Positions 4,035 to 23,012 of a stretch of 29,281 nt of DNA are shown here, in pieces. Each line of letters opens with the position of its first letter. Positions within the stretch are counted from its first letter, which is position 1. The notes below the pieces were generated by a model. The model did no database searches. It saw nothing but the letters and a program-made list of their open reading frames with translations, and had not been told where the DNA came from. Position numbers and translations under genes: made by a program. Source of the DNA: Promethearchaeota archaeon (lineage in GTDB: Archaea; Asgardarchaeota; Lokiarchaeia; Sigyniarchaeales; SOKP01). The stretch covers positions 1 through 29,281 of the forward strand of contig JBHLLU010000049.1 in assembly GCA_048938895.1 (NCBI GenBank), given 5' to 3'.

Positions 4035-4547
4035 ATGGGTAAAGATGGCACCATTTTTGGGATTATTGGATTAATTCTGGGAGCAGGAGGTTTAGGATTA
4101 GGAGGTTATATGTGGATATCTTTATCAAAAGTAGAAAATCAGATGACTAACATTTCACAACAATCATTGTGGTATAAATGTAATGAAACCCCAATTAATA
4201 CCAATCCTATTTTTAGTTATATTTCATTCAATGGCCTAACCATTGAATTTACACTAGGTCATAATGAATCTGCTTACTTTACTTTTACGGCATTAGCACA
4301 TTTGGAACCCGATTCAGGATGGTCTCAAATTTACGTTTATTTCAAGGTAAATGGGATTATTGATACCGACCATTATGCCTTAGTGGGACTATATAATGGA
4401 GAGACTGCTTCACTTATAATAACATTGCAATATATTAGGCGTGATTTATCCCTGGGAGTACATAGTGTTACAATAGTTATATATGGAACCAAAACAGGTA
4501 ATTATATTTATTGTAGTTCATTATCTGTACAAAAAATTTCATGGTAA
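4035..4547 (+). CDS. hypothetical N-terminally anchored surface protein with a beta-rich domain
   Basis: Gly-rich hydrophobic N-terminus (GIIGLILGAGGLGLGG); GAGGT RBS at about 4022; alternating beta-strand pattern; T-rich tract after the stop. Confidence 0.75.
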   Translation: MGKDGTIFGIIGLILGAGGLGLGGYMWISLSKVENQMTNISQQSLWYKCNETPINTNPIFSYISFNGLTIEFTLGHNESAYFTFTALAHLEPDSGWSQIYVYFKVNGIIDTDHYALVGLYNGETASLIITLQYIRRDLSLGVHSVTIVIYGTKTGNYIYCSSLSVQKISW

Positions 4548-4638
4548 CTTCCTAAATTAACTTTATTTTTTTTGAATTATTTTGCATAAACTAGTGATAA
4601 TGCTATTTTACAATTTTGGACTGAAAAGGGTAATTTAA

Positions 4639-5901
4639 ATGAAAATGATTACAGGTGTAGATATCTTAGAGGATGATATAAAGGAAAAATTAAGAACAGA
4701 AAACATCTACAAAATTTTTAATAATTTTATATTTCCTCTCATAACTGAAGAAGAACGCGAATTTCTGGAAGAATTGGAACGGTTTCTATTAAAAGATATT
4801 GAACCTAAAATAAATTTAAATGAAGAAGTATATGAACTCTTCCCCATTCTTGGAAAAAAGAATTATATCCAAAGATTAAATCCATGTGGTGATTCTGAAA
4901 GGTATAATATGCGTTATGAAATGCTGTTAGCAATGGCTACATCGATTATCGATCCCGAATTAGATTTAGCTCGAGTAGTAACGGGAGTGATATTTGCTAA
5001 TCCACTGTTTCTATTTGGTAAAGGAGAAAGAATTTCAGAAATTTTGAATGAAATAATAACAGGTAAAAAGATTGGTTGTATTTGTATTACGGAGAGAAGA
5101 CGAGGATCTGACGCAGTGAATATGGAAACGAAAGTTGAAGATAAAGGAGATCATGTAGAGTTCACTGGAGAAAAGTTATATACTACTAATGGACCTGTGG
5201 CTGATTATTTTATCGTGTATGGTGTTTCAGATGTTTCAGATCCACGAGCTACTATGTATCAAGCAATCGCAGAAAGAGGTCATGAAGGCTTGGTAACCAA
5301 TAGACTCGGTGTTCAATCTATTCCGCGAGTACAAATTGGGCAAACTATTTTTAATTCTGTAAAAATACCAAAAGAAAATGTACTTGGTGATAGAGGACAG
5401 GGGTATAAAAACTTATTTTCGGGGCTAGTGGCAGAACGATGTTCCATTATGGGTTCAAGTCTGGGTATAGCCTGGTTAACTGCGGTTACAGGACTCATTT
5501 ACACCAATCTCAGAACTCAATTTGGACGACCATTATATGACTTTCAAGGAGTATCATTTCCTCAAACTCAAAATTTCACTGAACTTATGGCTGCTACTGA
5601 ACTAGGATTTAAATCAGCTTCAGAGTATAATAAAACTATTGAGCGGGATCATTTCGGGGAACAGAAATTCATTAAATACAATGCATCATTCAGTTCAGGA
5701 TCCAAATATTTGGCATCACACCTAGCCCAAAAAATTTCGTACGAAACTCAACAATTGTGTGGTGGGATCGCCTTTACAGATAACCTAAGAATTGATAAAG
5801 CCTTAGAAGTAGCTAAAGTTCAGGAAATCATAGGCGGTGCTCGTAATATACAACTTTATTTAGTCAGTAGAACCATAAGAGATATGGTATTACGATTGTA
5901 A
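4639..5901 (+). CDS. acyl-CoA dehydrogenase family protein
   Basis: CITE...GSD, GEK.YTTNG, F..V.IP.ENVLG..GQG, R.QFGRPL..FQ, QLCGG motifs. Confidence 0.93.
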   Translation: MKMITGVDILEDDIKEKLRTENIYKIFNNFIFPLITEEEREFLEELERFLLKDIEPKINLNEEVYELFPILGKKNYIQRLNPCGDSERYNMRYEMLLAMATSIIDPELDLARVVTGVIFANPLFLFGKGERISEILNEIITGKKIGCICITERRRGSDAVNMETKVEDKGDHVEFTGEKLYTTNGPVADYFIVYGVSDVSDPRATMYQAIAERGHEGLVTNRLGVQSIPRVQIGQTIFNSVKIPKENVLGDRGQGYKNLFSGLVAERCSIMGSSLGIAWLTAVTGLIYTNLRTQFGRPLYDFQGVSFPQTQNFTELMAATELGFKSASEYNKTIERDHFGEQKFIKYNASFSSGSKYLASHLAQKISYETQQLCGGIAFTDNLRIDKALEVAKVQEIIGGARNIQLYLVSRTIRDMVLRL

Positions 5902-6043: not shown

Positions 6044-9000
6044 ATGTTGACTCAACATTTTAAGAAAATTAGGATTGTGAAAAGAGATCAAAAGAACAAG
6101 CAGTATATATTAATTATTTTGTTTTTTAGCATTTTTTTAATTCCTATTTTGACTATTGTTTATAATAACGAATCAATCACTGATTTTAATGAACGAGAAT
6201 CTCCAATCATCTCATCAAATGATGTAAATGGTAGATATTTACCAGTCATTCAACATGCAAACATTTCAAAATCATTTAGTGAAGGAGAATTTCCTTCTAA
6301 CGTTAGCTTTAATCTTGCACCAGGATGGACGTCAAAAAATGTAACAATTAGTTACTCCGGGTTAAGCACAAGAAAAGATTGGGTGTCTAACGGTGAATTT
6401 GATTCTGATATGAATGGATGGACATATGAATCTCTTGGTTCAGAATGGTCATTAGCAGGATATGGTAGTTCTGGGAATCCTGGAGGTTGCCTCAAATTCA
6501 GGGTATCCGGAGGTGTGTCTAAAGGAGATTATTCTTATTTTGAACAAAATGTTGCGATTCCGGAGGAATTTGCTTCAGGAACTGCTAGATTGTCTATTGA
6601 TTATTATATTGCATGGACAAGTACTTTTAATGGAAGTATCTTTATATCGTTAGTTGTAGATAATGTAGAGAAAAATAAAACAGTACATCTCCAATCAGCA
6701 CCTATCATGTCTTGGGAATCCCTAATATTATCTTACGACCCTCTAGCATACGGACAAGTACTTCCTGGAGATGTTTCCTTAAGAATTGGAGTTTATACCT
6801 GGGAAGCAGATTCGGTTACCCCATGGAATGAATTTTACTTTGATAATATTAAATGCGAATTGGAGACAAAACCAAATATTCCTAACATAATATATGTAAA
6901 AGATAATGAATTTAATCAAAATTACTCCTATATAAACACTAGTTTTGGAGAAGGATATTCTTTCATTGATACTGAACGTTATCGTGAGGTCAGTGATGAT
7001 ATTATTTTTACGATTTACCAAAATATATCGGATGTTTTGGACCTAAATATAGATACAATTTCAATTCATTCTCCTTCAGAGAAATCCCTAAATTCATCAG
7101 TGTTAGGAGTAGAAGGAAGTTGTTATGAATTTGGAACAAATATTAGTTGGTATACAGAATTATCCATCTCTTCTATTCCACCAGATTACACAAGCTGGGT
7201 TGAATTAGAAAAACCTACTGATTGGTTTTTTACTAGTATTATTGATGGATATGAAGCAGATCGAACAAGTAATTGCTTTGGTAAAGAATTTGGTTCGCCT
7301 AAACTTATAATCCCTTCTGGTATAATAGGACCTGGTTTGTGGAAATTAAGTGCAATAAGTCAAAATTACATTTCTGAAAGTTCATTATTTGTTTGGAATG
7401 GGATAGGATTTGAAATAACAGACACATTTAACCATGATGATAAATTTAAAATAAGTGTATCTTTGAACAGTACCATTTCTCTTCAAAATACTGTTATTAA
7501 TTGTTCTATCTTTTACCCAAATGGCACACTTCTCCTTCACCAAACCAAAGAGCCTTTAAGTTATAATTTAAATTTTGGAAATTATACTGTAGGAAAAAAC
7601 ATGACGGTTGGAGAATATCTGGTCAAGCTGAAATGGTTAAATAGCCAGAGTTCTGAATTTGTTGATGAGGTAGGGTATTCAGAATTCATATTTACTGTGT
7701 GGCACAATACTACTTTAACAGCAGTAGATTCCTATATTGAGAGACTTGCTGGGGACCCTTGTTTAATTAAAGTTAATTACACGGATTATGATTTCAAAAC
7801 TTACATCCCTTTTGCTACAGTAACTTATAATTCTACCTTTGGACAATCAGGAGTGATGGATTTCATCGGCACAGGCCCTTATATTCTCGATTTAGATACA
7901 TCTGATTTAGAATTAGGGGATTATTATTTTTCATTTAATGCATCAAAAGATTTCTATCAGAGTCAAACATCTAAAAATTTAATCCATTTAAAGATTATGG
8001 CACAACCTTTAACCATCGAGGTTCCAGATTCGATTATTACTGGTATGGGAAATGATTATGTAAGTTGTCGGATAAACGTAACAGGATTATATTCTAGTAG
8101 CTTAATTTGGCCAGTAAATATCACTACTGATTGGGAAAATCCTTATACGGTTACAGACCATAATAATGGTACATATACTCTGAATTTTTCGACAAGTAAT
8201 CTACCTACTCGTGGTATGAATGAATCATTTACAGTTAAAGTGTTTGCAAGTAAAAAATTTTATGGGAGTGCTTCAAGATTCATAACAATGGAAATTCATC
8301 CAATACAAGCAACTATTGGAGTGAATAATTCAATTATTTTGACAGATTTGGGAGATAAAATTTATTTTAAAGTGAACTATACTGAAAAAGGATCAATGTC
8401 TTTGATTGATGGAGCCATATGTAGCATTACTTGGCCGGACACATATACTATAACTTTTGAAGGCCAAGAATTTGTTATATGCTTAGATACCAGCAATCTT
8501 ACTATCGCAACTTATACTGCGTTTATAAAATTAGAAAAACCAGGATTTGAAACTGTCTACAGTAGTGTCACTGTGTATATTAACCGTATTGAGATAAAGG
8601 TTCAGACTATTGATTTTGAAGATTCAATTAAGGCTTCAATCGGGGAAACACTTATGATTAGGATTAATTTGACAGAAATGAGTACGGGATTTCCAATAGA
8701 AAATGCATCTGTATTCTATTCATGTAAATTTGGATTAGGATATTTTACATATGTGAGTGATGGGATTTATGAATTAGAGTTAACTCTCCCAAAGACTATT
8801 GATGGTAATTATAGAGTAACTCTAATTATCTTAAAGGAAGGTTCAGTTTATAAAACCAAAGAATTTTCTTTTTTTATCTCAATCAGTACGATAAAAAAAC
8901 CGGATTATACAATGTGGTACATCATAACGGGTCTTGTAATTATTCTCGGCATATTAGGTATTTTTAGTCTAAGAACATATGTTGTAGTTCCATATAGGAG

Positions 9001-9715
9001 GAAGAAGCAAGCCGAACTGCTTGCTAAGACTCAAAGGTATAAAGACATCATGAATATAGAAGCAATTGTAATTTCAAATCGTCTAAGTGGACTTCACATA
9101 TATTCTAAAAGCTATTACCTTATAAAAGATCATCAAAATGAATTATTGTCTGGTTTTATTCAAGCTATTACTCTAATAAGCAGTGAAATAGTAGGAAAAG
9201 AAAGGTTAGAAGAAATTAAGATTAAATCAGATAAAATAAAAGGAGTTGAGAAAATAATAGAGCTTGATTTCAAACACTTCAATTTCTTTATTAGCGATTA
9301 TAAAGATATAAGGATTATTTTTATTCTCAAAGAAAAAGCTTCTGACAGATTTAAAAGTATCATTGCTGAATTTTTATCCAATTTAGATGGAAAATTCGCA
9401 AATAAATTTAAAAACTGGACGGGGGACTTAGAAGAGTTTAGTACAGTTTTACCTTCTCTTATCAATAAACATTTTCAATTATTTTATAGAGAACATTTTA
9501 AAATTAATCCCATTTTAAATACAAATCGAATATCAAAAGATGAAGAGTTGAACAAGCTTGAAATACGCCTTCTAAATGTAGTTATTTCTATGACTAAAAA
9601 TCAAGAAGAATTTTACTTAGAAGACGCTCTTGAAACTATTCATGAAAAAAATAGGGATAAACTAATCGAGGCTCTTGAAGCGTTAATTACGAAAAAAATT
9701 CTTATACCTTCCTAA
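6044..9715 (+). CDS. large single-pass membrane protein with an extracellular beta-sandwich region and a cytoplasmic longin/roadblock-like domain
   Basis: N-terminal hydrophobic anchor; NGEFDS...GW carbohydrate-binding-module-like start; many N-x-S/T sequons; Ig-like repeats (G.Y.L...T..L..G.Y....ASK..Y); TM WYIITGLVIILGILGIFSL; cytoplasmic SGLHIYSK..LLSGFIQAIT...EI..ELDFKHFNFFI.D...IR.IFIL. Confidence 0.8.
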   Translation: MLTQHFKKIRIVKRDQKNKQYILIILFFSIFLIPILTIVYNNESITDFNERESPIISSNDVNGRYLPVIQHANISKSFSEGEFPSNVSFNLAPGWTSKNVTISYSGLSTRKDWVSNGEFDSDMNGWTYESLGSEWSLAGYGSSGNPGGCLKFRVSGGVSKGDYSYFEQNVAIPEEFASGTARLSIDYYIAWTSTFNGSIFISLVVDNVEKNKTVHLQSAPIMSWESLILSYDPLAYGQVLPGDVSLRIGVYTWEADSVTPWNEFYFDNIKCELETKPNIPNIIYVKDNEFNQNYSYINTSFGEGYSFIDTERYREVSDDIIFTIYQNISDVLDLNIDTISIHSPSEKSLNSSVLGVEGSCYEFGTNISWYTELSISSIPPDYTSWVELEKPTDWFFTSIIDGYEADRTSNCFGKEFGSPKLIIPSGIIGPGLWKLSAISQNYISESSLFVWNGIGFEITDTFNHDDKFKISVSLNSTISLQNTVINCSIFYPNGTLLLHQTKEPLSYNLNFGNYTVGKNMTVGEYLVKLKWLNSQSSEFVDEVGYSEFIFTVWHNTTLTAVDSYIERLAGDPCLIKVNYTDYDFKTYIPFATVTYNSTFGQSGVMDFIGTGPYILDLDTSDLELGDYYFSFNASKDFYQSQTSKNLIHLKIMAQPLTIEVPDSIITGMGNDYVSCRINVTGLYSSSLIWPVNITTDWENPYTVTDHNNGTYTLNFSTSNLPTRGMNESFTVKVFASKKFYGSASRFITMEIHPIQATIGVNNSIILTDLGDKIYFKVNYTEKGSMSLIDGAICSITWPDTYTITFEGQEFVICLDTSNLTIATYTAFIKLEKPGFETVYSSVTVYINRIEIKVQTIDFEDSIKASIGETLMIRINLTEMSTGFPIENASVFYSCKFGLGYFTYVSDGIYELELTLPKTIDGNYRVTLIILKEGSVYKTKEFSFFISISTIKKPDYTMWYIITGLVIILGILGIFSLRTYVVVPYRRKKQAELLAKTQRYKDIMNIEAIVISNRLSGLHIYSKSYYLIKDHQNELLSGFIQAITLISSEIVGKERLEEIKIKSDKIKGVEKIIELDFKHFNFFISDYKDIRIIFILKEKASDRFKSIIAEFLSNLDGKFANKFKNWTGDLEEFSTVLPSLINKHFQLFYREHFKINPILNTNRISKDEELNKLEIRLLNVVISMTKNQEEFYLEDALETIHEKNRDKLIEALEALITKKILIPS

Positions 9716-11946: not shown

Positions 11947-14900
11947 TTGGTGAAATCTAAATTGAAATTCAATGCAAAAATCAAATTAAAAACTAAAGGA
12001 AAAACTGTAATTCTAATTCTAATCATAGCAATGTCAGTGGCAGGAATTAGCAATATAAACGTTAATTCATCACAAGTTAACAAAGCAGACGAAGAAATTA
12101 AACCCAGTACACCTCCAGTTAAGAAGTATAAATATGATTACGAGAATAATTTTGATTATTCTAGTCATTCCGCTGCTGTCATACTAGGAGATATGAGTCC
12201 TGTAGTCACGTCAGCTGTTGCTGGAGCTGATACTGAATGGAGTCAAAATCCAAATGATAATAACAAATTAGAATTTGATATGGTGGGGGTTTTTAATTCT
12301 TGGGAAGGAGATTTTGCTGTAGTGGGCGCCGTACAAGTAGAGTCTGTTAATACCTTTAAGCCGCAAGCGAATCCATATTTAGGGGCTTACATTGATTGGT
12401 CCTTTGATCTTAATCTTGATGTTCTGGAAGGTATTGACATTTTAACACGGCAATGTTATATATCCTTAATGATCTTAACTCCAGATCCAACTGAAAATGA
12501 AGAACTAATAACAATCGAAAACTTTAATCCTCAAAAAGGTACCTACTATTTGGCTAATTTTAAAAAATATATTTGGGATGACGGAAAAGTTAGATTTGCG
12601 TTAGCTTGTCTTTTACTTGGGACTACTTTATGGTATGCTCCATTACCTTGGTTTTTGGCGACGCTTGATTTTAATGGATTGCGGGTAGTTCAAGAAATAA
12701 AACCTGTAGAAACAGAAAGAGAGGAGAAAACTTTAATTCTTGTCCACGGTTGTTTTGAAGCTGATCCAATAACTTATTGGTCGAGTTATAGAGCCATGTT
12801 AGAATTTCAGCAATCTTATGATAAAATCATTATAATGAGTTATTATGGTAATTATCGCGCACATAGATACTCAAAAGATGAAGATGGCGTTTGGCATGAT
12901 GATCCTATTTTTTTCGTCGATTTCGGTTTGACACCTCAACCCATTTTTACTCTAGCAAATTCTATTGTTGAAATCGCTTTTGGGTTAGCACTCTACATAA
13001 TGCAAGATCTTTTTTATGTTGGGAATAATGTAGACATTGTCTCTCATTCGATGGGAGGTTTAGTGACGAGATTCATGGTGAAACATTTCTATGAAGAGAT
13101 AAAGAATTTTTATGCCCTTTTTGACCAAAGTTTTACAATTAATTCTGTGTGTACGTGTGGAACTCCTAACCATGGACTAATGCTCGGATGGATAGCTTGG
13201 GCATTTCCGTTCCCTATAATACCACCCCTTCAGATTGCTGAAATGGGACCTGGAAGTCTTTTCCTTACGGAATTAAACTATATAGGGGTAATTTCTGGTA
13301 CTGAAATACCCCTTTCAGGTATATTTATCAATTGGTTTACGTATCGAGGTGGAGATCATACGACATGGTTAAGTCACTTCATAAGAGGAGATGGGTTAGT
13401 AGGAGCCCTTTCTGTTCCTATAGCTGGTGCGACAAATAGGGGTATATTCAATGTAGATCATGGTGGAACAGCAATCAGCAAAATGACGAGACATGTTATA
13501 TTCAATGATCTTGTTGAACCGCCTGATATTATTGAAGAAATCTTTGCGACGGGGATACCTGGAACAATTATTTGTATAGAAGATCTCACGCTTGAACCTA
13601 ATTTTGAGATGCCTGGGGGAAAAACTCTTTTATCGATTACATTAGATCCTCAAGATGTGAACGATATTGAACCAACCTCTATGGAAGTAGATATTAATCC
13701 AATTTTTCCTATGCAGTTAAAATCTGGAACAGAAGGCACTTATGAAGTCGAACTCCCATTAGAAGATGGAGATTATTCTTTTTTAATAACTGCAGATGAG
13801 CATGATGGGGGAACATACCAAATTTATGGGAATTTGAGAATCGTAGATGATGATGCGCAAGCACCCCAAATTTTTATATCACCCCTTCAAACTTTGATAT
13901 CAGATGAAGAAGCTGAGGGAGGAGTCTCGGTTTTATGGGTAATTTCAGATTACAGTGGTATCGATGAGGCTATAGTGACTTTAAATGAATTAGAGATTGC
14001 TTCTTATAGCGATGAAGGTGAAATAATTGGTGGTTATCTAATCCCAAACACTCTTGGAGTATATACTTTTTCTTTTTATGCGAGAGATGACGATAATGAT
14101 CCGGGACATGATCCACCAGGAGGAGACTGGTTGGAAGGCTCAATCGAGAGAACATTTACGATTTATGATGATGATATAGATCCTCCTGTAATAACCATAA
14201 CACCAGGCGATGGTTATTTTTCCGATGGAGAAACTGTTGGTGGTTTATTAGTTTCATGGGATATTTCAGATTATAGTGGTATTTCTGAAGCTACTGTAGA
14301 GTTAAATGGAGATGAGATTAGGTCTTACGGACTTACTGAAGGATCCATAGAAGACTCATACCTTTTACTAAATGAACCAGGAACATATACATTTGAAATT
14401 TGGGCTAAAGATGGAGATAATGACCTAAGACATGATCCACTAGAACAAGATTGGTTAGATAATTCAGCTCAGAGAACTATTGTAATCTATGATGATGATA
14501 CAACAGGACCTACGATTTATCCCCTTATAATTGATCGTTATTGGGTTGGTGATCAACTATGTCTTGAGTTTAATGTATTTGCTACAGATCATCAGAGTGG
14601 TATTGGAATCGTAGATATTAAAATCGGATCATATAGTGCAAATTTCCTTGGTCGTCATTATGCTGTTCTTGATCCTGGAAATTACGATCTACAAATTACG
14701 GTATCAAATGGAGATAATGATCGATTATTTGATACAGAAATATCATATTTAACCATACCAATAGATTTAATGCCTTTGGTAACAACAATATCTTTTGGTA
14801 CGCCACATCATCTTATAGGTGATAATCATCATATAACTTCAGATACAGAAATCATTTTCACTGTTGATGCAGTTTCCGAATTAGACGAAACACTATATAA

Positions 14901-15708
14901 AATTTCAAATGATCAATATCCTGGTGAATGGACTCAATATACAGTACCACTATTTCTTAACTTAGATGATGGCATCTACACTCTTGAATATTATAGCATT
15001 GATACTGAGGGTAACACCGAAAAGATTAAATCTGTATCCATCGTCCTTGACAATTCGGCACCTTTTATTAATATAATCACGCCTCAACCAGGAGTTGCTT
15101 TGCAGGATGGTGTTACATTCACTATGGAAGTGACAGATTTAACTGGGGTAGAATGGGTAAGTATTTCAATAAGAGAACCTGATGGCTCTACTGGAATTAT
15201 CATTGATCCAGCTTTTGAAGATTTGTCTGCTATAAACGTAGGTGGTGATATCTGGCAGTACGACTTTGACACTACACTCTTACCAGATGGATACTATATT
15301 CTCTTCGTAGAAACAATTGATCCATTAGGACAATATGGATATGAAACGGTTAATTTTGCTATTAGAAATTGGGCTGTTTTAGAATTATTACCCGCAACGG
15401 AAAAAAATAGAGCAGGTCGTACTATGCCTGTTAAATTTTCTCTAAGAGTAGTTGAAGCTGTTGATCCTGCTATGCCATTCGTGTGGAATGAAGAATTAGA
15501 TATATTAATATACGACGAAAGCGATCCTTCAACAATCCTACAACATTCAACTTATGGAGATACTTCAGTAGATTATAGGATCAGTGCTGAAGGTGAACTC
15601 TATATTACAAATTTTAAAACCTCCAAAACTCCTGCAGTTTATATTGTTGAAATTTGGAGAAAGGGAATACCGATAGGAACCTTTGATTTCGAAACTTATC
15701 TTAAATGA
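11947..15708 (+). CDS. large secreted alpha/beta-hydrolase (lipase/PGAP1-like) with Ig-like repeats and a C-terminal PxKF domain
   Basis: Signal/anchor; LILVHG, DIVSHSMGG nucleophile elbow, GTPNHG, GDGLV (Asp), VDH (His); acidic beta repeats; G.YTLEYYSID..GN.E repeat; AGRTMPVKF. The TTG/GTG start is uncertain. Confidence 0.85.
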   Translation: MVKSKLKFNAKIKLKTKGKTVILILIIAMSVAGISNINVNSSQVNKADEEIKPSTPPVKKYKYDYENNFDYSSHSAAVILGDMSPVVTSAVAGADTEWSQNPNDNNKLEFDMVGVFNSWEGDFAVVGAVQVESVNTFKPQANPYLGAYIDWSFDLNLDVLEGIDILTRQCYISLMILTPDPTENEELITIENFNPQKGTYYLANFKKYIWDDGKVRFALACLLLGTTLWYAPLPWFLATLDFNGLRVVQEIKPVETEREEKTLILVHGCFEADPITYWSSYRAMLEFQQSYDKIIIMSYYGNYRAHRYSKDEDGVWHDDPIFFVDFGLTPQPIFTLANSIVEIAFGLALYIMQDLFYVGNNVDIVSHSMGGLVTRFMVKHFYEEIKNFYALFDQSFTINSVCTCGTPNHGLMLGWIAWAFPFPIIPPLQIAEMGPGSLFLTELNYIGVISGTEIPLSGIFINWFTYRGGDHTTWLSHFIRGDGLVGALSVPIAGATNRGIFNVDHGGTAISKMTRHVIFNDLVEPPDIIEEIFATGIPGTIICIEDLTLEPNFEMPGGKTLLSITLDPQDVNDIEPTSMEVDINPIFPMQLKSGTEGTYEVELPLEDGDYSFLITADEHDGGTYQIYGNLRIVDDDAQAPQIFISPLQTLISDEEAEGGVSVLWVISDYSGIDEAIVTLNELEIASYSDEGEIIGGYLIPNTLGVYTFSFYARDDDNDPGHDPPGGDWLEGSIERTFTIYDDDIDPPVITITPGDGYFSDGETVGGLLVSWDISDYSGISEATVELNGDEIRSYGLTEGSIEDSYLLLNEPGTYTFEIWAKDGDNDLRHDPLEQDWLDNSAQRTIVIYDDDTTGPTIYPLIIDRYWVGDQLCLEFNVFATDHQSGIGIVDIKIGSYSANFLGRHYAVLDPGNYDLQITVSNGDNDRLFDTEISYLTIPIDLMPLVTTISFGTPHHLIGDNHHITSDTEIIFTVDAVSELDETLYKISNDQYPGEWTQYTVPLFLNLDDGIYTLEYYSIDTEGNTEKIKSVSIVLDNSAPFINIITPQPGVALQDGVTFTMEVTDLTGVEWVSISIREPDGSTGIIIDPAFEDLSAINVGGDIWQYDFDTTLLPDGYYILFVETIDPLGQYGYETVNFAIRNWAVLELLPATEKNRAGRTMPVKFSLRVVEAVDPAMPFVWNEELDILIYDESDPSTILQHSTYGDTSVDYRISAEGELYITNFKTSKTPAVYIVEIWRKGIPIGTFDFETYLK
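13840..14484 (+). repeat. two tandem internal protein repeats of about 107 aa (a third, degenerate copy follows)
   Basis: Units start IVDDDAQAP (13840), IYDDDIDPP (14161) and IYDDDTTGP (14485). The first two share ISDYSGI.EA.V.LN, G.YTF...A.D.DND..HDP...DWL. Confidence 0.85.
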
Positions 15709-16635: not shown

Positions 16636-17376
16636 ATGGATAGAATATTAGATATCGATTTAGACTTCTTTCTCAATAAAGTAAGTATTTCACGAGAGAA
16701 TGATAAGCGCTTAAATAGGAAAAAATATTATCCTTGGTCAAAGTCCAGGTTTGAAAGTTTTCTTGAAAATCGTTGCCAATTATCAAAAAATCATCGCATT
16801 CCAGGAAGAATTCTTAATCAACATCATGAAGCATTCTATTTTTGGCGAGATCAGATACTTCAAGGAAAAATTATAACTCCTTTTGAACTAGTGCACATTG
16901 ATGCACATTCTGATTTAGGTGACGCTGATTGGGGGTGGATATATGTTACAAGCGAATTATTACATAAACCAGTTGAAGAAAGAATCAATCCCAATGATTG
17001 TTTTTTATATGGAATTAATGAAGCAAATTATCTGGCATTTACTCTAGCCTGTAGATGGATAAACAAATTGACTTTCGTGGTTCACCCAAGATGGGAGGAT
17101 GATTTAACAAAAGTTTATTTTAAAGATTATAAATCAGAGAGTCACATGATAGAACTAAAAAAATTCGACAAGGATGAATTATTAGAAAAAGGATTTGATG
17201 CAACTCCAGATATTTCTGATCCCGAACCTCATGTTCCAGTTGAGTTCATTGATTTATTAGACTATAAAACTGAAGATCAATTTAACGTAATAAGCTGCTG
17301 TCACTCAAAATCTTACACTCCAAGAAGTTCAGATAAATTATTAGGAGTTTTTAAGAAATTTATAAAGAAAATCTAA
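16636..17376 (+). CDS. UPF0489 family protein (arginase/deacetylase-like metal motifs)
   Basis: LDIDLDFF, HH.AF..W, VHIDAHSDLG, INEANY, S..YTP..SD motifs. Confidence 0.8.
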   Translation: MDRILDIDLDFFLNKVSISRENDKRLNRKKYYPWSKSRFESFLENRCQLSKNHRIPGRILNQHHEAFYFWRDQILQGKIITPFELVHIDAHSDLGDADWGWIYVTSELLHKPVEERINPNDCFLYGINEANYLAFTLACRWINKLTFVVHPRWEDDLTKVYFKDYKSESHMIELKKFDKDELLEKGFDATPDISDPEPHVPVEFIDLLDYKTEDQFNVISCCHSKSYTPRSSDKLLGVFKKFIKKI

Positions 17377-18290
17377 GATATATTATTTCTCTCAATTGGA
17401 TCAAGTACTTTTCTGATAATTTTTGGTTGATAAATTAAACTTTTATGAAATACTGGTGAATAATAAAGTGTATTATTATTTATCCTGGTATAATTGTTTT
17501 GAATTTGTTCAATACTTACGCTTTTAAAATCAATGCTGTCTGAACCAAGTGTAAACGACCAACATCCAAAAAAAGAGGGGATAAATTGGCGATATTGAAT
17601 GGAAAATTGGAATTTTTTTGAAAATATTTTAAAATATTCAATTGAACTCTTCGGATTCTCCTTAGAGAGAATTTTACGAACCTTTTTCGTTCTTTTAGAG
17701 TAATAGAAGCTATCCCCATTCCCAGTTTGTGCAGAAAGAATACCATTTGGTTGTAAACAAGTTTTAAGGTCATTATAAAATTGCTCTTCTAAGGCAAAAG
17801 AACAATTTTTTTTATTATCAGGTAAATCAATATAAATAATATCGTAAGGTTCTTCAACCTCCTTAATAAATTGTAATCCATCTTGAATTTTAATGTTTAA
17901 TTTTGGATGTTTATTTATTTTACCAAGTAATGGTTTAAAATGCTTGATACAAAATTTTGTCACATACCTATCTAACTCAACTAAATCCACAAGTTCAATT
18001 TCTGGAAATTTCAACAGTTGTTTTGCTAAAAACAAATCCCCTCCTCCGATGATCAGTATTCTTCTTGGATTAGGATGAGAAAATAAGGCAGGAAAGCAAA
18101 ACAATTCATGATATATAAATTCATCTAACTCTGCAAGTTGAATTTCATTATCTAAAAAAAGCATCTTACCAAAGCTCCGAGTTTTAATAATTTCAATATG
18201 ATTAAACTCAGAATAAAAATCCTCTAGTATCTTATCAATTAATATTTTTACTTTAACAGAATGAAGAACAGTTTTCGGTTTATATTGCAT
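17373..18290 (-). CDS. speE: spermidine synthase / polyamine aminopropyltransferase
   Basis: FGKML.LD..IQ....DEFIYHE, HPNPRRILIIGGGD, VELD..V, DG..FI, YDII..D..D, L.PNGI...Q, IPSF.G.W.F. Confidence 0.92.
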   Translation of the reverse strand: MQYKPKTVLHSVKVKILIDKILEDFYSEFNHIEIIKTRSFGKMLFLDNEIQLAELDEFIYHELFCFPALFSHPNPRRILIIGGGDLFLAKQLLKFPEIELVDLVELDRYVTKFCIKHFKPLLGKINKHPKLNIKIQDGLQFIKEVEEPYDIIYIDLPDNKKNCSFALEEQFYNDLKTCLQPNGILSAQTGNGDSFYYSKRTKKVRKILSKENPKSSIEYFKIFSKKFQFSIQYRQFIPSFFGCWSFTLGSDSIDFKSVSIEQIQNNYTRINNNTLYYSPVFHKSLIYQPKIIRKVLDPIERNNIS

Positions 18291-18310
18291 CTTATTCCCT
18301 ATTTTGGTAT

Positions 18311-19393
18311 TTAATTATCTTTAATCTCAACTTCAGTATATTCTATAATCAATCCTTTTTGAATTAAGAGGAGATCACTTCTAAATTCAAGTTTCCTTAG
18401 TTTCCTCTCGTCAAATTTAAAATTTGTATCGAACTCTATTTCTTTCTTAAGCATTTTCAAAAATTGTTGATCTAATGATTTTAATGGATATGAATTAAAA
18501 GATTTATACGATTTAGAAATATTAAGCTCATTTTTGCTAATAAATTCATTAATTATTATTTGAGAGTTATCATCATACAACCCATTCAGATAAATCTGAT
18601 TGATGGAATCATCTAAGATTTCCTCAATAATACTTAAAAATGTAAATAGTTCTTCAACTTCATATGGAGGATCTATATGAATGATTGAAAATTTCTCATC
18701 CTTTAGTTCTGAAATTTCATTTATTTCCTTAAAATCATAATTAAAGACTTGAAAATCCTTGAATTTATATTTATATGCAATTTCTTTCAATAATTTAGTA
18801 ATTCGGCCATCAATTTCGATGACGTACACAGATAATTCAGGTAGGATGAATTTACATAAGATACTAATCAAATCATCGTCTCCAATAAATATTGCTTTTT
18901 GAGATGTAAGTTGAATATTGCTAATAATTAATTGAGCTCGTTTTAATGAAGTTTTTAATGAGCATGGGAGTTGATAGTTATAATAACTCGTTTTAAAATT
19001 AGGTTTAAACAGCTTTAATAAGCTAAATTTGGAAAATAAGTGTGGATGTTTCAAATAATATGATTTATGGGGAATTTTTCTTATTAGTTTTAACCATATT
19101 CTCGTTTTTGAAGGTCTTTGAAATAATAGGTTAAAAACTTCTTGATTTTGAATTTTGATATTCTTTTGCTTTTTAAGTTTAATTACATTGACATTTTGCA
19201 GAAATTTTGATACGGCTAAAAAAGATGAGAATGAAACATTCGATTTTTTAACACAATCCGTAAATTTTCTATAGGATTTTATTAATCGTAACAGATTTAT
19301 GAAATTTAGAAAAGAAACAGTATCATTATGGAGATAGTTCCCTCTAATTAAAAGATCAAAAAGTTCCTCTAGTTTTTTTACATTTTCAGTCAA
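18311..19393 (-). CDS. BpsA-like (N4-bis(aminopropyl)spermidine synthase family) aminopropyltransferase, divergent
   Basis: Y.Q..C...T..KRA, IFIGDDDLISI, V.EIDGRI, DPPY motifs match the BpsA C-terminal domain; 20 bp upstream of speE on the same strand. Confidence 0.75.
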   Translation of the reverse strand: MTENVKKLEELFDLLIRGNYLHNDTVSFLNFINLLRLIKSYRKFTDCVKKSNVSFSSFLAVSKFLQNVNVIKLKKQKNIKIQNQEVFNLLFQRPSKTRIWLKLIRKIPHKSYYLKHPHLFSKFSLLKLFKPNFKTSYYNYQLPCSLKTSLKRAQLIISNIQLTSQKAIFIGDDDLISILCKFILPELSVYVIEIDGRITKLLKEIAYKYKFKDFQVFNYDFKEINEISELKDEKFSIIHIDPPYEVEELFTFLSIIEEILDDSINQIYLNGLYDDNSQIIINEFISKNELNISKSYKSFNSYPLKSLDQQFLKMLKKEIEFDTNFKFDERKLRKLEFRSDLLLIQKGLIIEYTEVEIKDN

Positions 19394-20546: not shown

Positions 20547-20882
20547 ATGAAAGAAGTATTTCCAGAACCTATAATAGGCTTACCAGAAGCAGATGTACCT
20601 TTAGAGGGTATTAAAGCTTACCTAGCTCAGGGAGATAGCTACCAAATTATATTTATGAGGTTTGAAAAGGACGTGGTTCTCGAGGAACATTCTCATGAAA
20701 GTCAGTGGGGTGTAGTACTTGGAGGCAAAATCGATTTAATTATTGATGGTAAGAAATATACTTTCAAGAAGGGTCATAGATACTTTATTCCAAAAGGGAT
20801 AAAGCATTCGGGAAAAATTTATAAAGGATATGCTGATATTACCTATTTCAATCAAAAAGATAGATATAAGGTTAAAAAGTAA
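20547..20882 (+). CDS. cupin domain protein
   Basis: EHSH..QWG.VL.G and G..YFIP.G..H cupin motifs. Confidence 0.9.
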   Translation: MKEVFPEPIIGLPEADVPLEGIKAYLAQGDSYQIIFMRFEKDVVLEEHSHESQWGVVLGGKIDLIIDGKKYTFKKGHRYFIPKGIKHSGKIYKGYADITYFNQKDRYKVKK

Positions 20883-20973: not shown

Positions 20974-20987
20974 GAAAAGCTTTAAAA
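20974..20987 (+). promoter_or_regulatory. archaeal BRE/TATA promoter candidate for the Lys-rich peptide gene
   Basis: GAAAAGC-TTTAAAA about 70 bp upstream of ATG 21057; GAGGAG RBS-like sequence at 21040-21045. Confidence 0.55.
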
Positions 20988-21056
20988 CCTAGATTAAAAT
21001 TTTTAAGTATATAGATATTTAAATTCTTTTACAAAATTAGAGGAGAGAATAAAAAA

Positions 21057-21152
21057 ATGGCTAAAAAAGCACCTAAGAAGAAAGCTGCTCCAAAGAAAAA
21101 AGCAGCTCCAAAGAAAGCAGCGCCTAAGAAGAAAGCTCCAGCAAAAAAATAA
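21057..21152 (+). CDS. 31-aa histone H1-tail-like Lys/Ala/Pro peptide
   Basis: Below the ORF-track length cutoff. Manual translation MAKKAPKKKAAPKKKAAPKKAAPKKKAPAKK*. Repeats differ only at synonymous positions (Ala GCT/GCA/GCG, Pro CCT/CCA, Lys AAA/AAG). Flanked by RBS and T-rich terminator. Confidence 0.85.
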   Translation: MAKKAPKKKAAPKKKAAPKKAAPKKKAPAKK

Positions 21153-21167
21153 AAATATGAAATTTGG

Positions 21168-21198
21168 TTTTCGTTTTTTTTAATTTTAATTTTTTCTT
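21168..21198 (+). terminator. T-rich archaeal terminator after the peptide gene
   Basis: TTTTCGTTTTTTTTAATTTTAATTTTTTTCTT begins about 15 nt after the stop codon. Confidence 0.6.
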
Positions 21199-21401: not shown

Positions 21402-22109
21402 ATGAAGACAAAAGAAGAAAAAGACGACCTTGCGTCGTGCCAATCCACTCTTAATCCCAGCAAGTGGAATGGAAGAACAATAGAAATTGATGATGCTGGG
21501 ACTGGAGATCTCGTTGGAGATGCCTTTATTGGCTTTAGAGATACCCAAAACGGAAAGATATTATTTCAATCTGTTCCGGTAGGGTTCTATAATCAGGATA
21601 ATAAAGACGATAACCGTGCCAACAAACACATTGTAGAGGTTGTTAAGAAAGGACTTAAACTTCTCAATTATAAAAAAGGAGATCGGATCCTTCTATGCAG
21701 AGGTGATTGCTTTAATTTAGTGAGGGAATACTTTGACGATAATGAGATTTATTATGAACCTGCAATTATCGAAGGAGTACTCCAAGAAGCTGTAGAAGGG
21801 AGATATATCCACCATTTAAGAAAACTTGGAATTTATTCACGTAAACTTACGATTGAGGCTGGTGCTGAAAGATATTTTATCAGCTTTAATTGGATTTGTC
21901 GAGATTTCCCAAACCGTGAACGGTTTGTTAAAACAGGATTTCCTTCTTGGAAAAAGAAATGGCGGAAAATTGCCTTAAAAAGGTATAAATCATATCAAAG
22001 TAATAAGTTTATGCGGAGACACCCCAGTAAGAAAGACAAAAATCTAAATAAAGAGTATCTCCTCGAAAAACCAATTTCTATACGAGATTCAACCTCTAAA
22101 CGGCAATAA
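21402..22109 (+). CDS. conserved hypothetical protein, possible RNase H-like fold
   Basis: N-terminal IEIDDAGTGDLVG resembles the RNase HII GxDEAGRG motif; basic C-terminus; T10 tract at 22126-22135. Confidence 0.65.
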   Translation: MKTKEEKDDLASCQSTLNPSKWNGRTIEIDDAGTGDLVGDAFIGFRDTQNGKILFQSVPVGFYNQDNKDDNRANKHIVEVVKKGLKLLNYKKGDRILLCRGDCFNLVREYFDDNEIYYEPAIIEGVLQEAVEGRYIHHLRKLGIYSRKLTIEAGAERYFISFNWICRDFPNRERFVKTGFPSWKKKWRKIALKRYKSYQSNKFMRRHPSKKDKNLNKEYLLEKPISIRDSTSKRQ

Positions 22110-22463: not shown

Positions 22464-23012
22464 ATGTATGACGCATTATTCAAAGTAGTTATTTTCGGAG
22501 ATTCTGGTTCGGGTAAAACGACTCTAAGAAAAAGATTCATGACAAATAAATTTATATCTGATTCTCGTCAAACTATTGGAGTTGATTTTGAGACTAAACT
22601 CCTTGATGTTGATGGTTTAGAAGTGAAATTAATGATATGGGATTTTGCAGGGGAAGAAAGATTTCGATTTATTTTTCCTCAATATATTTATGGTGCTATG
22701 GGGGGTATTCTAATGTATGATATCACTAATTATTCGAGCTTTTCTCATATAAATGAATGGTTGGATATAATAAAAGAAACTAATCAACTCTTCCCAATGA
22801 TTCTACTTGGAGGAAAATCGGATCTAGATGAATATAGAGAGGTTCCATTTGGACTAGGAATGGAAGCTGCAAAAGTAAGTAATATGACAGAATTTGTTGA
22901 ATGTTCCAGTAAAACAGGGGAATATGTTAATGAAACCTTCACAACGCTTGCAAGGATAATGTTAAATAAGATGATGATTAAGAAACAAGAAACACAAGGT
23001 ATTTTAGTATAA
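22464..23012 (+). CDS. Rab-like small GTPase (Ras superfamily)
   Basis: G1 GDSGSGKT, G2/RabF1 TIGVDF, KLMIWDFAGEERFR, Y.YGA.G.ILMYDIT, G4 GKSD, G5 CSSK. No C-terminal Cys prenylation motif. Confidence 0.95.
   Translation: MYDALFKVVIFGDSGSGKTTLRKRFMTNKFISDSRQTIGVDFETKLLDVDGLEVKLMIWDFAGEERFRFIFPQYIYGAMGGILMYDITNYSSFSHINEWLDIIKETNQLFPMILLGGKSDLDEYREVPFGLGMEAAKVSNMTEFVECSSKTGEYVNETFTTLARIMLNKMMIKKQETQGILV

Follow-up and report, generated by a model that had tools for sequence, protein, structure and literature searches.

A stand-alone gene for a 31-residue lysine-, alanine- and proline-rich polycation in one family of Asgard archaea, and its likeness to histone tails

What would an archaeon do with a peptide of 31 residues built from lysine, alanine, proline and a single methionine, and is such a peptide encoded by a gene at all? 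The question is raised by a short frame in a 29,281-nucleotide stretch of a Promethearchaeota archaeon contig (JBHLLU010000049.1; hereafter the window), for which a preliminary description had proposed a stand-alone gene for a peptide resembling the tail of histone H1. Among the defining features of eukaryotic chromatin are histone tails and linker histones. Precursors of both in Asgard archaea are an active question in the available text of a review and a preprint (PMC10919886; bioRxiv 10.64898/2026.07.02.735847). That text holds no passage on a stand-alone tail gene, and literature searches found no paper on a free-standing form of the tail.

The frame lies on the forward strand between an ATG at 21057 and a TAA at 21150-21152 and, read directly, encodes MAKKAPKKKAAPKKKAAPKKAAPKKKAPAKK, with 15 lysines, 10 alanines, 5 prolines, 1 methionine and no acidic residue; re-reading gave the same frame and composition as first described. 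Its assignment as a coding sequence of 31 residues (21057-21152) rests on this reading, on orthologues and on selection. Upstream on the same strand, a BRE-like GAAAAG (20974-20979) is directly followed in the sequence by the TATA box CTTTAAAA (20980-20987), 76 nt 5' of the ATG. From the usual archaeal distance between TATA box and start site, transcription is expected to begin at about 21005-21012, giving a putative 5' UTR of ~45-50 nt within 20988-21056, and a Shine-Dalgarno sequence GAGGAG (21040-21045, forward strand) places its GGAG at -15. Past the stop codon, the forward strand carries a putative terminator region of three T-tracts (T8 at 21174-21181, T4 at 21184-21187 and T6 at 21190-21195); archaeal RNA polymerase is well established to terminate at oligo-T tracts. 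Promoter box, Shine-Dalgarno sequence and T-tract thus all stand where the preliminary description had put them. The gap that houses them measures 519 bp, from the end of a cupin gene on the left (20547-20882) to the start at 21402 of a 235-residue ORF without an assigned family on the right (21402-22109, forward strand). The predicted product of transcription is a monocistronic RNA of ~180 nt.

In the 4.65-Mb, 31%-GC assembly of the source genome, the peptide frame is the only stop-to-stop frame in which at least 17 of 20 residues are K, A or P, and it still ranks first of 12 frames under a looser K/A/P filter. A degenerate DNA pattern for PKKKAPAKK finds two loci only in this genome, the peptide gene and the tail of one histone gene, and the same pattern run backwards as a control has no match there. 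The exact peptide is present in the ESM Atlas. It has no entry in a collection of 15 billion proteins, nor were four of its orthologue sequences found in that collection; low-complexity micro-ORFs can drop out of protein catalogues.

Is the frame kept in other genomes? The preliminary description had named conserved equivalents in related genomes as a check, and stand-alone orthologues of 27-37 residues were indeed read in 39 of 135 genomes of the same family (f1). They are spread over 4 of its 13 genera, with 28 of 54 genomes in the source genus (the source genome included), 9 of 42 in genus g22, 1 of 6 in g15 and 1 of 10 in g21; five further matches in g22 and one at a contig edge (G018) stand outside the count of 39. 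A protein search of 41 relatives recovered small K/A/P frames in 10 of the 24 other genomes of the genus, all of which start MAKK and end in a stop, a profile of 11 peptides matched 30 of the 135 family genomes, and two degenerate DNA patterns contributed additional copies. Five metagenome contigs also carry the gene, and a scan of viral contigs with the pattern MAKKKAPKKKAPAKK returned 0 contigs. Among the 400 Asgard genomes searched, the stand-alone peptide was found in family f1 only: the 265 genomes outside it yielded no stand-alone copy and gave three matches only, each inside a frame of 272-295 residues. Against protein representatives, the 11-peptide profile retrieved 5 proteins at E<=0.001, all of 134-369 residues with generic K/A/P or K/A/S/R repeats, which are uninformative on the range of the short form. 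Since the searches depend on prefilters and patterns, which miss variants, each absence is to be read as "not found". Detection in only about half of the genus, and in no more than 4 of the 13 genera, means that the gene is either dispensable or was partly missed by such searches. We know of no cultured relative that carries it.

Some variation within the family is seen at the level of gene number and length. One genome (G093:C29) has two peptide genes ~300 bp apart on the same strand (4517-4609 and 4823-4933), which looks like a tandem duplication. At three other loci (L030 in G009, L033 in G090 and L035 in G005) an in-frame TAA trims the 37-residue form to 31-32 residues, and the codons past it still read in the K/A/P frame.

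The layout recurs together with the peptide, in keeping with the stand-alone gene with its own promoter, Shine-Dalgarno sequence and terminator that was first proposed. Over 32 non-identical loci, TTTAWA lies 60-110 nt 5' of the ATG in 31 (mode -81; -76 in the source genome), GGAG falls within the last 25 nt before the ATG in 27 (mode -16; -15 in the source genome) and a run of at least six T follows no more than 70 nt past the stop in all 32. The upstream consensus of the orthologues is aGAAAnCTTTAAAA ... AAGGAGACGTA, and an nhmmer profile of these upstream regions, made with the source genome left out, has its top match in that genome at C78:20958-21047 (E 0.023). The four histone genes of the source genome are arranged on the same general plan, their TATA boxes lying 85-110 nt upstream and GGAGGA preceding the ATG.

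Could the frame still be non-functional as a protein, either an ORF that arose by chance in an A-rich repeat, a leader peptide for the gene at 21402 or a small RNA? It is short and of low complexity, and the repeat has further open frames in the source genome. The pattern of substitution points the other way. Pairwise comparison of the 14 orthologues of 37 residues gave 190, 317 and 1273 differences at first, second and third codon positions, and 1086 synonymous against 353 non-synonymous codon differences. The 13 of these that align without a repeat shift (L047 was dropped) have a pooled pN/pS of 0.084; for 75 of their 78 pairs the median dN/dS is 0.047, the other three lying outside the correction range. 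Environmental contigs, which come from DNA runs of one study that may include the source sample, vary inside the ORF at 21086, 21095, 21122 and 21128, all third codon positions read as synonymous. Substitutions are overwhelmingly synonymous; the protein is under strong purifying selection, and the constraint falls on it and not on the DNA repeat. Selection on the protein, as the preliminary description had it, is thus borne out; its premise that the repeat units vary only synonymously does not hold, as the length and order of the units vary too (KKKAAP, KKAAP, KKKAPAKK). The ATG and Shine-Dalgarno sequence are moreover kept in the K/A/P frame, the T-tract is kept past the stop, the genes downstream differ among genomes and the locus has no Rfam match at E<=1. 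A non-functional frame is hardly credible on these figures and is largely refuted by the conservation pattern; the peptide locus is a real gene.

How firmly is this gene tied to its surroundings? In a related genome (G002), a peptide 94% identical to that of the source genome is encoded by a cassette that is 72% identical over 227 nt, from promoter to terminator. This cassette stands ~6 kb away on the same contig, and the cupin gene and the 235-residue gene there lie ~30 nt apart. Contigs in two sequencing runs (X3 and X4) join position 20876 of the window to 21361 with 41 letters between, and therefore represent a related strain without the cassette at this place, as in G002. Neighbours in other genomes include genes for a nitroreductase/ferredoxin, a PNPOx protein, MsrA, a Ras-like GTPase and an MFS transporter. 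Synteny with the gene at 21402, which had been suggested as a guide to orthologues, is accordingly loose: in G002 the cassette is found in the same region, ~6 kb from that gene. The cassette moves within a loosely conserved neighbourhood, and the variation of its neighbours argues for a monocistronic unit and not a leader peptide. A leader function for the gene at 21402 was considered and rejected, since the downstream genes differ and a T-tract lies past the stop in 32 of 32 loci.

Several features of the surrounding DNA are recorded here in their own right. The ORF at 21402-22109 matches no Pfam or NCBIfam family, has a basic C-terminal part and is kept at 76-80% nucleotide identity in G002, G013, G018 and G084. 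On the reverse strand at 17373-19393, 1.7-3.7 kb upstream of the peptide gene, lie genes for a spermidine synthase and a BpsA-like branched-chain polyamine synthase, and G002 homologues of both are found ~12 kb from its peptide cassette; that two kinds of polycation are encoded in one neighbourhood may be coincidence. Genes for Ras/Rab-like small GTPases occur near the peptide gene in the window (22464-23012, forward strand) and in G013 (L006:1820-2344, reverse strand), a proximity that is likely due to chance because these genomes probably hold many such genes. Two very long ORFs are also present on the forward strand of the window, at 6044-9715 (1223 residues) and 11947-15708 (1253 residues).

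What kind of protein is encoded? The 32 peptides together comprise 1094 residues, of which lysine makes up 48% (43-53%), alanine 28%, proline 16% and glycine 3%; arginine occurs 3 times, and aspartate, glutamate and aromatic residues are absent. Prolines are spaced by 5 or 6 residues in 136 of 142 intervals. The repeat unit differs by lineage, KKKAAP in the source genome, KKKAPA in others and three copies of KKKAPAKKAGP in the 37-residue form, so that what is kept across orthologues is the charge, the proline spacing and the MAKK start and not the precise sequence.

Profile searches place the peptide in no family. Three peptide forms gave no Pfam family at E<=10, a group that includes the winged-helix globular domain of linker histones (PF00538), for which 31 residues would leave no room, the histone fold (PF00808), and the HC2 (PF07382) and Hc1 (which we take to be PF07432) profiles. 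The NCBIfam search returned nothing above noise and PDB sequences had no match at E<=10. A stop codon directly follows the K/A/P repeat, with no histone fold behind it. The ESM Atlas adds a likeness at the level of features only (score 0.92) to a cluster of bacterial proteins, 17% of which carry HC2. What is present is a basic tail of the H1 type, rich in K, A and P, poor in arginine and punctuated by prolines. Membership of the H1 family falls with the lack of a globular domain and of any Pfam match; the peptide is neither an H1-family member nor a histone-fold protein.

The source genome has four histone-fold genes, all on contigs other than that of the peptide, and one of their products (P0001, C33:113781-114011, 77 residues) starts MAKKKAPAKKSEGY, beginning MAKKKAPAKKSEGYIAKAPIRRLMK and ending KRKRVTAADIRAATR. 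Tailed HLoB histones from cultured Loki archaea have a similar sequence, and the preprint, in its available text, gives the peptide RKRVTAADVIAAE for HLoB.1 (bioRxiv 10.64898/2026.07.02.735847). According to the same text, tailed Loki HLoB histones are abundant and co-localised with DNA, their tails are acetylated and methylated, and writers and erasers have been identified (bioRxiv 10.64898/2026.07.02.735847). The first ten residues of P0001 are MAKKKAPAKK. Orthologous peptides start MAKKKAPAKK or MAKKKAPKKK, the former in G024, G076, G085 and G001, and many of them share all of their first ten residues with the N-terminal tail that the HLoB-type histone has in the same genome; the peptide of the source genome starts MAKKAPKKK. 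In G032 and G038, both of a sister family, and in G071, what matches the peptide best is the K/A/P tail of this type of histone; in G071 the tail reads MAKKAAPKKAAPKKAAAPKKPAAKK.

Does this likeness reflect common origin? Homology to the histone tail is unprovable because the sequence is of low complexity. Origin by duplication of the 5' end of a histone gene was considered and is unsupported: the upstream region of the histone gene is not among the matches of the peptide upstream profile in the source genome. Most members of the genus have a short-tailed histone and the peptide together, and in five neither the peptide nor an HLoB-type histone was found. In four further genomes (G006, a single contig, and G009, G021 and G097; L196-L211) the peptide is present and an HLoB-type tailed histone was not found, the only histones seen being untailed or starting MAKK(K), with the starts MAKKVFAW, MAKKKHSFAW, MAAFAW and MSEYISW. 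Presence of the peptide does not track the tailed histone, and a complementary distribution, in which the peptide would replace a long histone tail, was rejected, as the genomes compared show no clean pattern. The tailed histone is far more widespread, so descent of the peptide from the tail, or convergence with it, is likelier than the peptide being the ancestor of the tail. Restriction to one Lokiarchaeial family likewise argues for a lineage-specific derivative and not an ancestor of eukaryotic H1 or histone tails. The peptide is probably either related in evolution to the HLoB-type N-terminal tail of the same genome or convergent with it.

What, then, would the peptide do? The reading preferred here, to which we assign a probability of about one half, is that of a disordered polycation with DNA or chromatin as its target, acting like a free histone tail or H1 tail. 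The self-contained transcription unit would yield a disordered chain of 31 residues with a net charge of ~+15, in which KK(K) clusters are parted by A and P and a proline recurs every 5-6 residues. The initiator methionine would probably be removed, because alanine follows it. The mature peptide may then bind the nucleoid electrostatically and neutralise the phosphate charge of DNA between or on histone-DNA complexes, doing the same job as an H1 C-terminal or histone N-terminal tail with the tail as a free molecule. Kinship or convergence with the HLoB-type tail makes it a possible substrate for the lysine-modifying enzymes that act on that tail. The data show how the gene is built, that it is conserved, that selection acts on the protein, what its composition is and that it resembles the histone tail; expression, a DNA or chromatin target, any linker role, methionine removal and any modification are inferred. 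DNA is favoured over RNA because of the near-exclusive use of lysine, the regular prolines and the identity with the tail of a chromatin protein.

RNA, ribosomes, polyphosphate or acidic proteins would attract such a polycation as well, and this counts against the preferred reading. A basic peptide serving RNA or the ribosome might be a filler of rRNA like eL41 or Thx, or might associate with the large expansion segments of Asgard rRNA. Ribosomes are known to contain tiny, highly basic peptides, and the strong Shine-Dalgarno sequence and consensus promoter suggest high expression. The Toxoplasma H1-like protein, too, is placed with the nucleolus and ribosomal proteins in the available text of its description (PMC9769792). 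An eL41- or Thx-like peptide would be broadly conserved with a fixed length and sequence; the peptide is confined to one family and was not found in many of its members. Its length ranges over 27-37 residues, its repeat period is a 6-mer in some and an 11-mer in others and premature stops are tolerated, which would be unexpected of a peptide that slots into a pocket of the rRNA. Micro-peptides that bind RNA or belong to ribosomes are generally rich in arginine, whereas lysine is used almost exclusively here, with arginine at 3 of 1094 residues. No PDB sequence matched at E<=10. A ribosomal role is weakened by these points and appears unlikely.

Less probable again is a soluble mimic of the histone tail, which would serve as a free substrate or competitor, a decoy or buffer, for the acetyltransferases, deacetylases or readers of HLoB tails and would not act chiefly on DNA. 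Its attraction lies in the MAKKKAPAKK N-terminus shared with the histone tail of the same genome. Loki enzymes that add acetyl groups to HLoB tail peptides or remove them are described in the available text of the preprint, as is the broad activity of LoHAT2, which extends to the yeast H4 tail (bioRxiv 10.64898/2026.07.02.735847). Yet the peptide occurs in genomes where an HLoB-type histone was not found, no writer or eraser gene adjoins it at any inspected locus, and in the source genome its MAKKAPKKK start differs from the exact tail motif. A partnership with polyphosphate or another polyanion is very improbable. Its model is AlgP, a protein of K/P/A repeats that spaces polyphosphate granules in Pseudomonas according to the text available (PMC9239181), and the source genome has one frame with a VTC domain (C47:3153-3851, forward strand, E 3.3e-38). 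However, PPK1 and PPK2 were not found in this 98.7%-complete genome, and no polyphosphate gene lies in any inspected neighbourhood. The probability left over by all these readings belongs to functions that were not thought of.

Within the preferred reading of a DNA- or chromatin-binding polycation, a bolder form is conceivable and must be called doubtful: a free, modifiable histone tail that acts in trans, has the N-terminus of the HLoB tail, binds linker or wrapped DNA in Loki-type chromatin and is handled by the same lysine acetylation and methylation machinery. The preliminary description had already suggested a histone tail supplied in trans, and this idea now has a concrete basis in the MAKKKAPAKK shared by the same-genome histone and many orthologues. 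If true, the free modifiable tail would be the first functional counterpart of a linker histone in archaea, and would mean that a "tail" can exist and evolve as a gene apart from the histone fold. A synthesisable peptide of ~30 residues also offers a simple reagent for the effects of tails on archaeal hypernucleosomes.

How does the peptide compare with systems already known? The C-terminal domain of H1, as far as the available descriptions go, is likewise a K/A/P copolymer with spread prolines and almost no arginine or acidic residues. That tail is roughly 100 residues long, against ~30 in the peptide. For 94 such tails, the available text of one study gives means of 34.6% lysine, 24.0% alanine and 10.6% proline, with little arginine, and has them condense DNA purely electrostatically while proline keeps a polyproline-II or disordered state (PMC11331069). 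The composition of the peptide (K 48%, A 28%, P 16%) supports the likeness to H1 tails first remarked upon; the winged-helix domain is lacking, and the charge is denser (K 48% vs 35%).

H1-like proteins without a globular domain, described in kinetoplastids, Toxoplasma (TgH1-like, 91 residues), dinoflagellates and bacteria, are small, basic and of the K/A/P type in the accounts available, and correspond to the C-terminal part of H1 only. The Toxoplasma protein is reported there to be associated with chromatin (PMC9769792). Unlike these, the peptide is archaeal, about one third of their size (27-37 residues) and free of S/T-P-x-K sites, and homology to them is not demonstrable. Chlamydia Hc1 and Hc2, Pseudomonas AlgP and the tail of mycobacterial MDP1/HupB resemble it, in the sources as available, as polycations of K/A/P repeats that bind polyanions, but are much longer or fused to folded domains, whereas the peptide has no Pfam match. 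The Asgard HLoB and HMpB tails of the preprint, in its available text, are lysine-rich and disordered and share the MAKK start (bioRxiv 10.64898/2026.07.02.735847). In contrast to HLoB, the peptide carries no histone fold and comes from a gene of its own, which has an independent promoter and terminator and no detectable shared upstream sequence. Within the range searched, the gene is the smallest stand-alone K/A/P polycation gene of its type and the first from archaea. By analogy, its product appears closest to the globular-domain-less H1-like proteins and the tails of Asgard histones.
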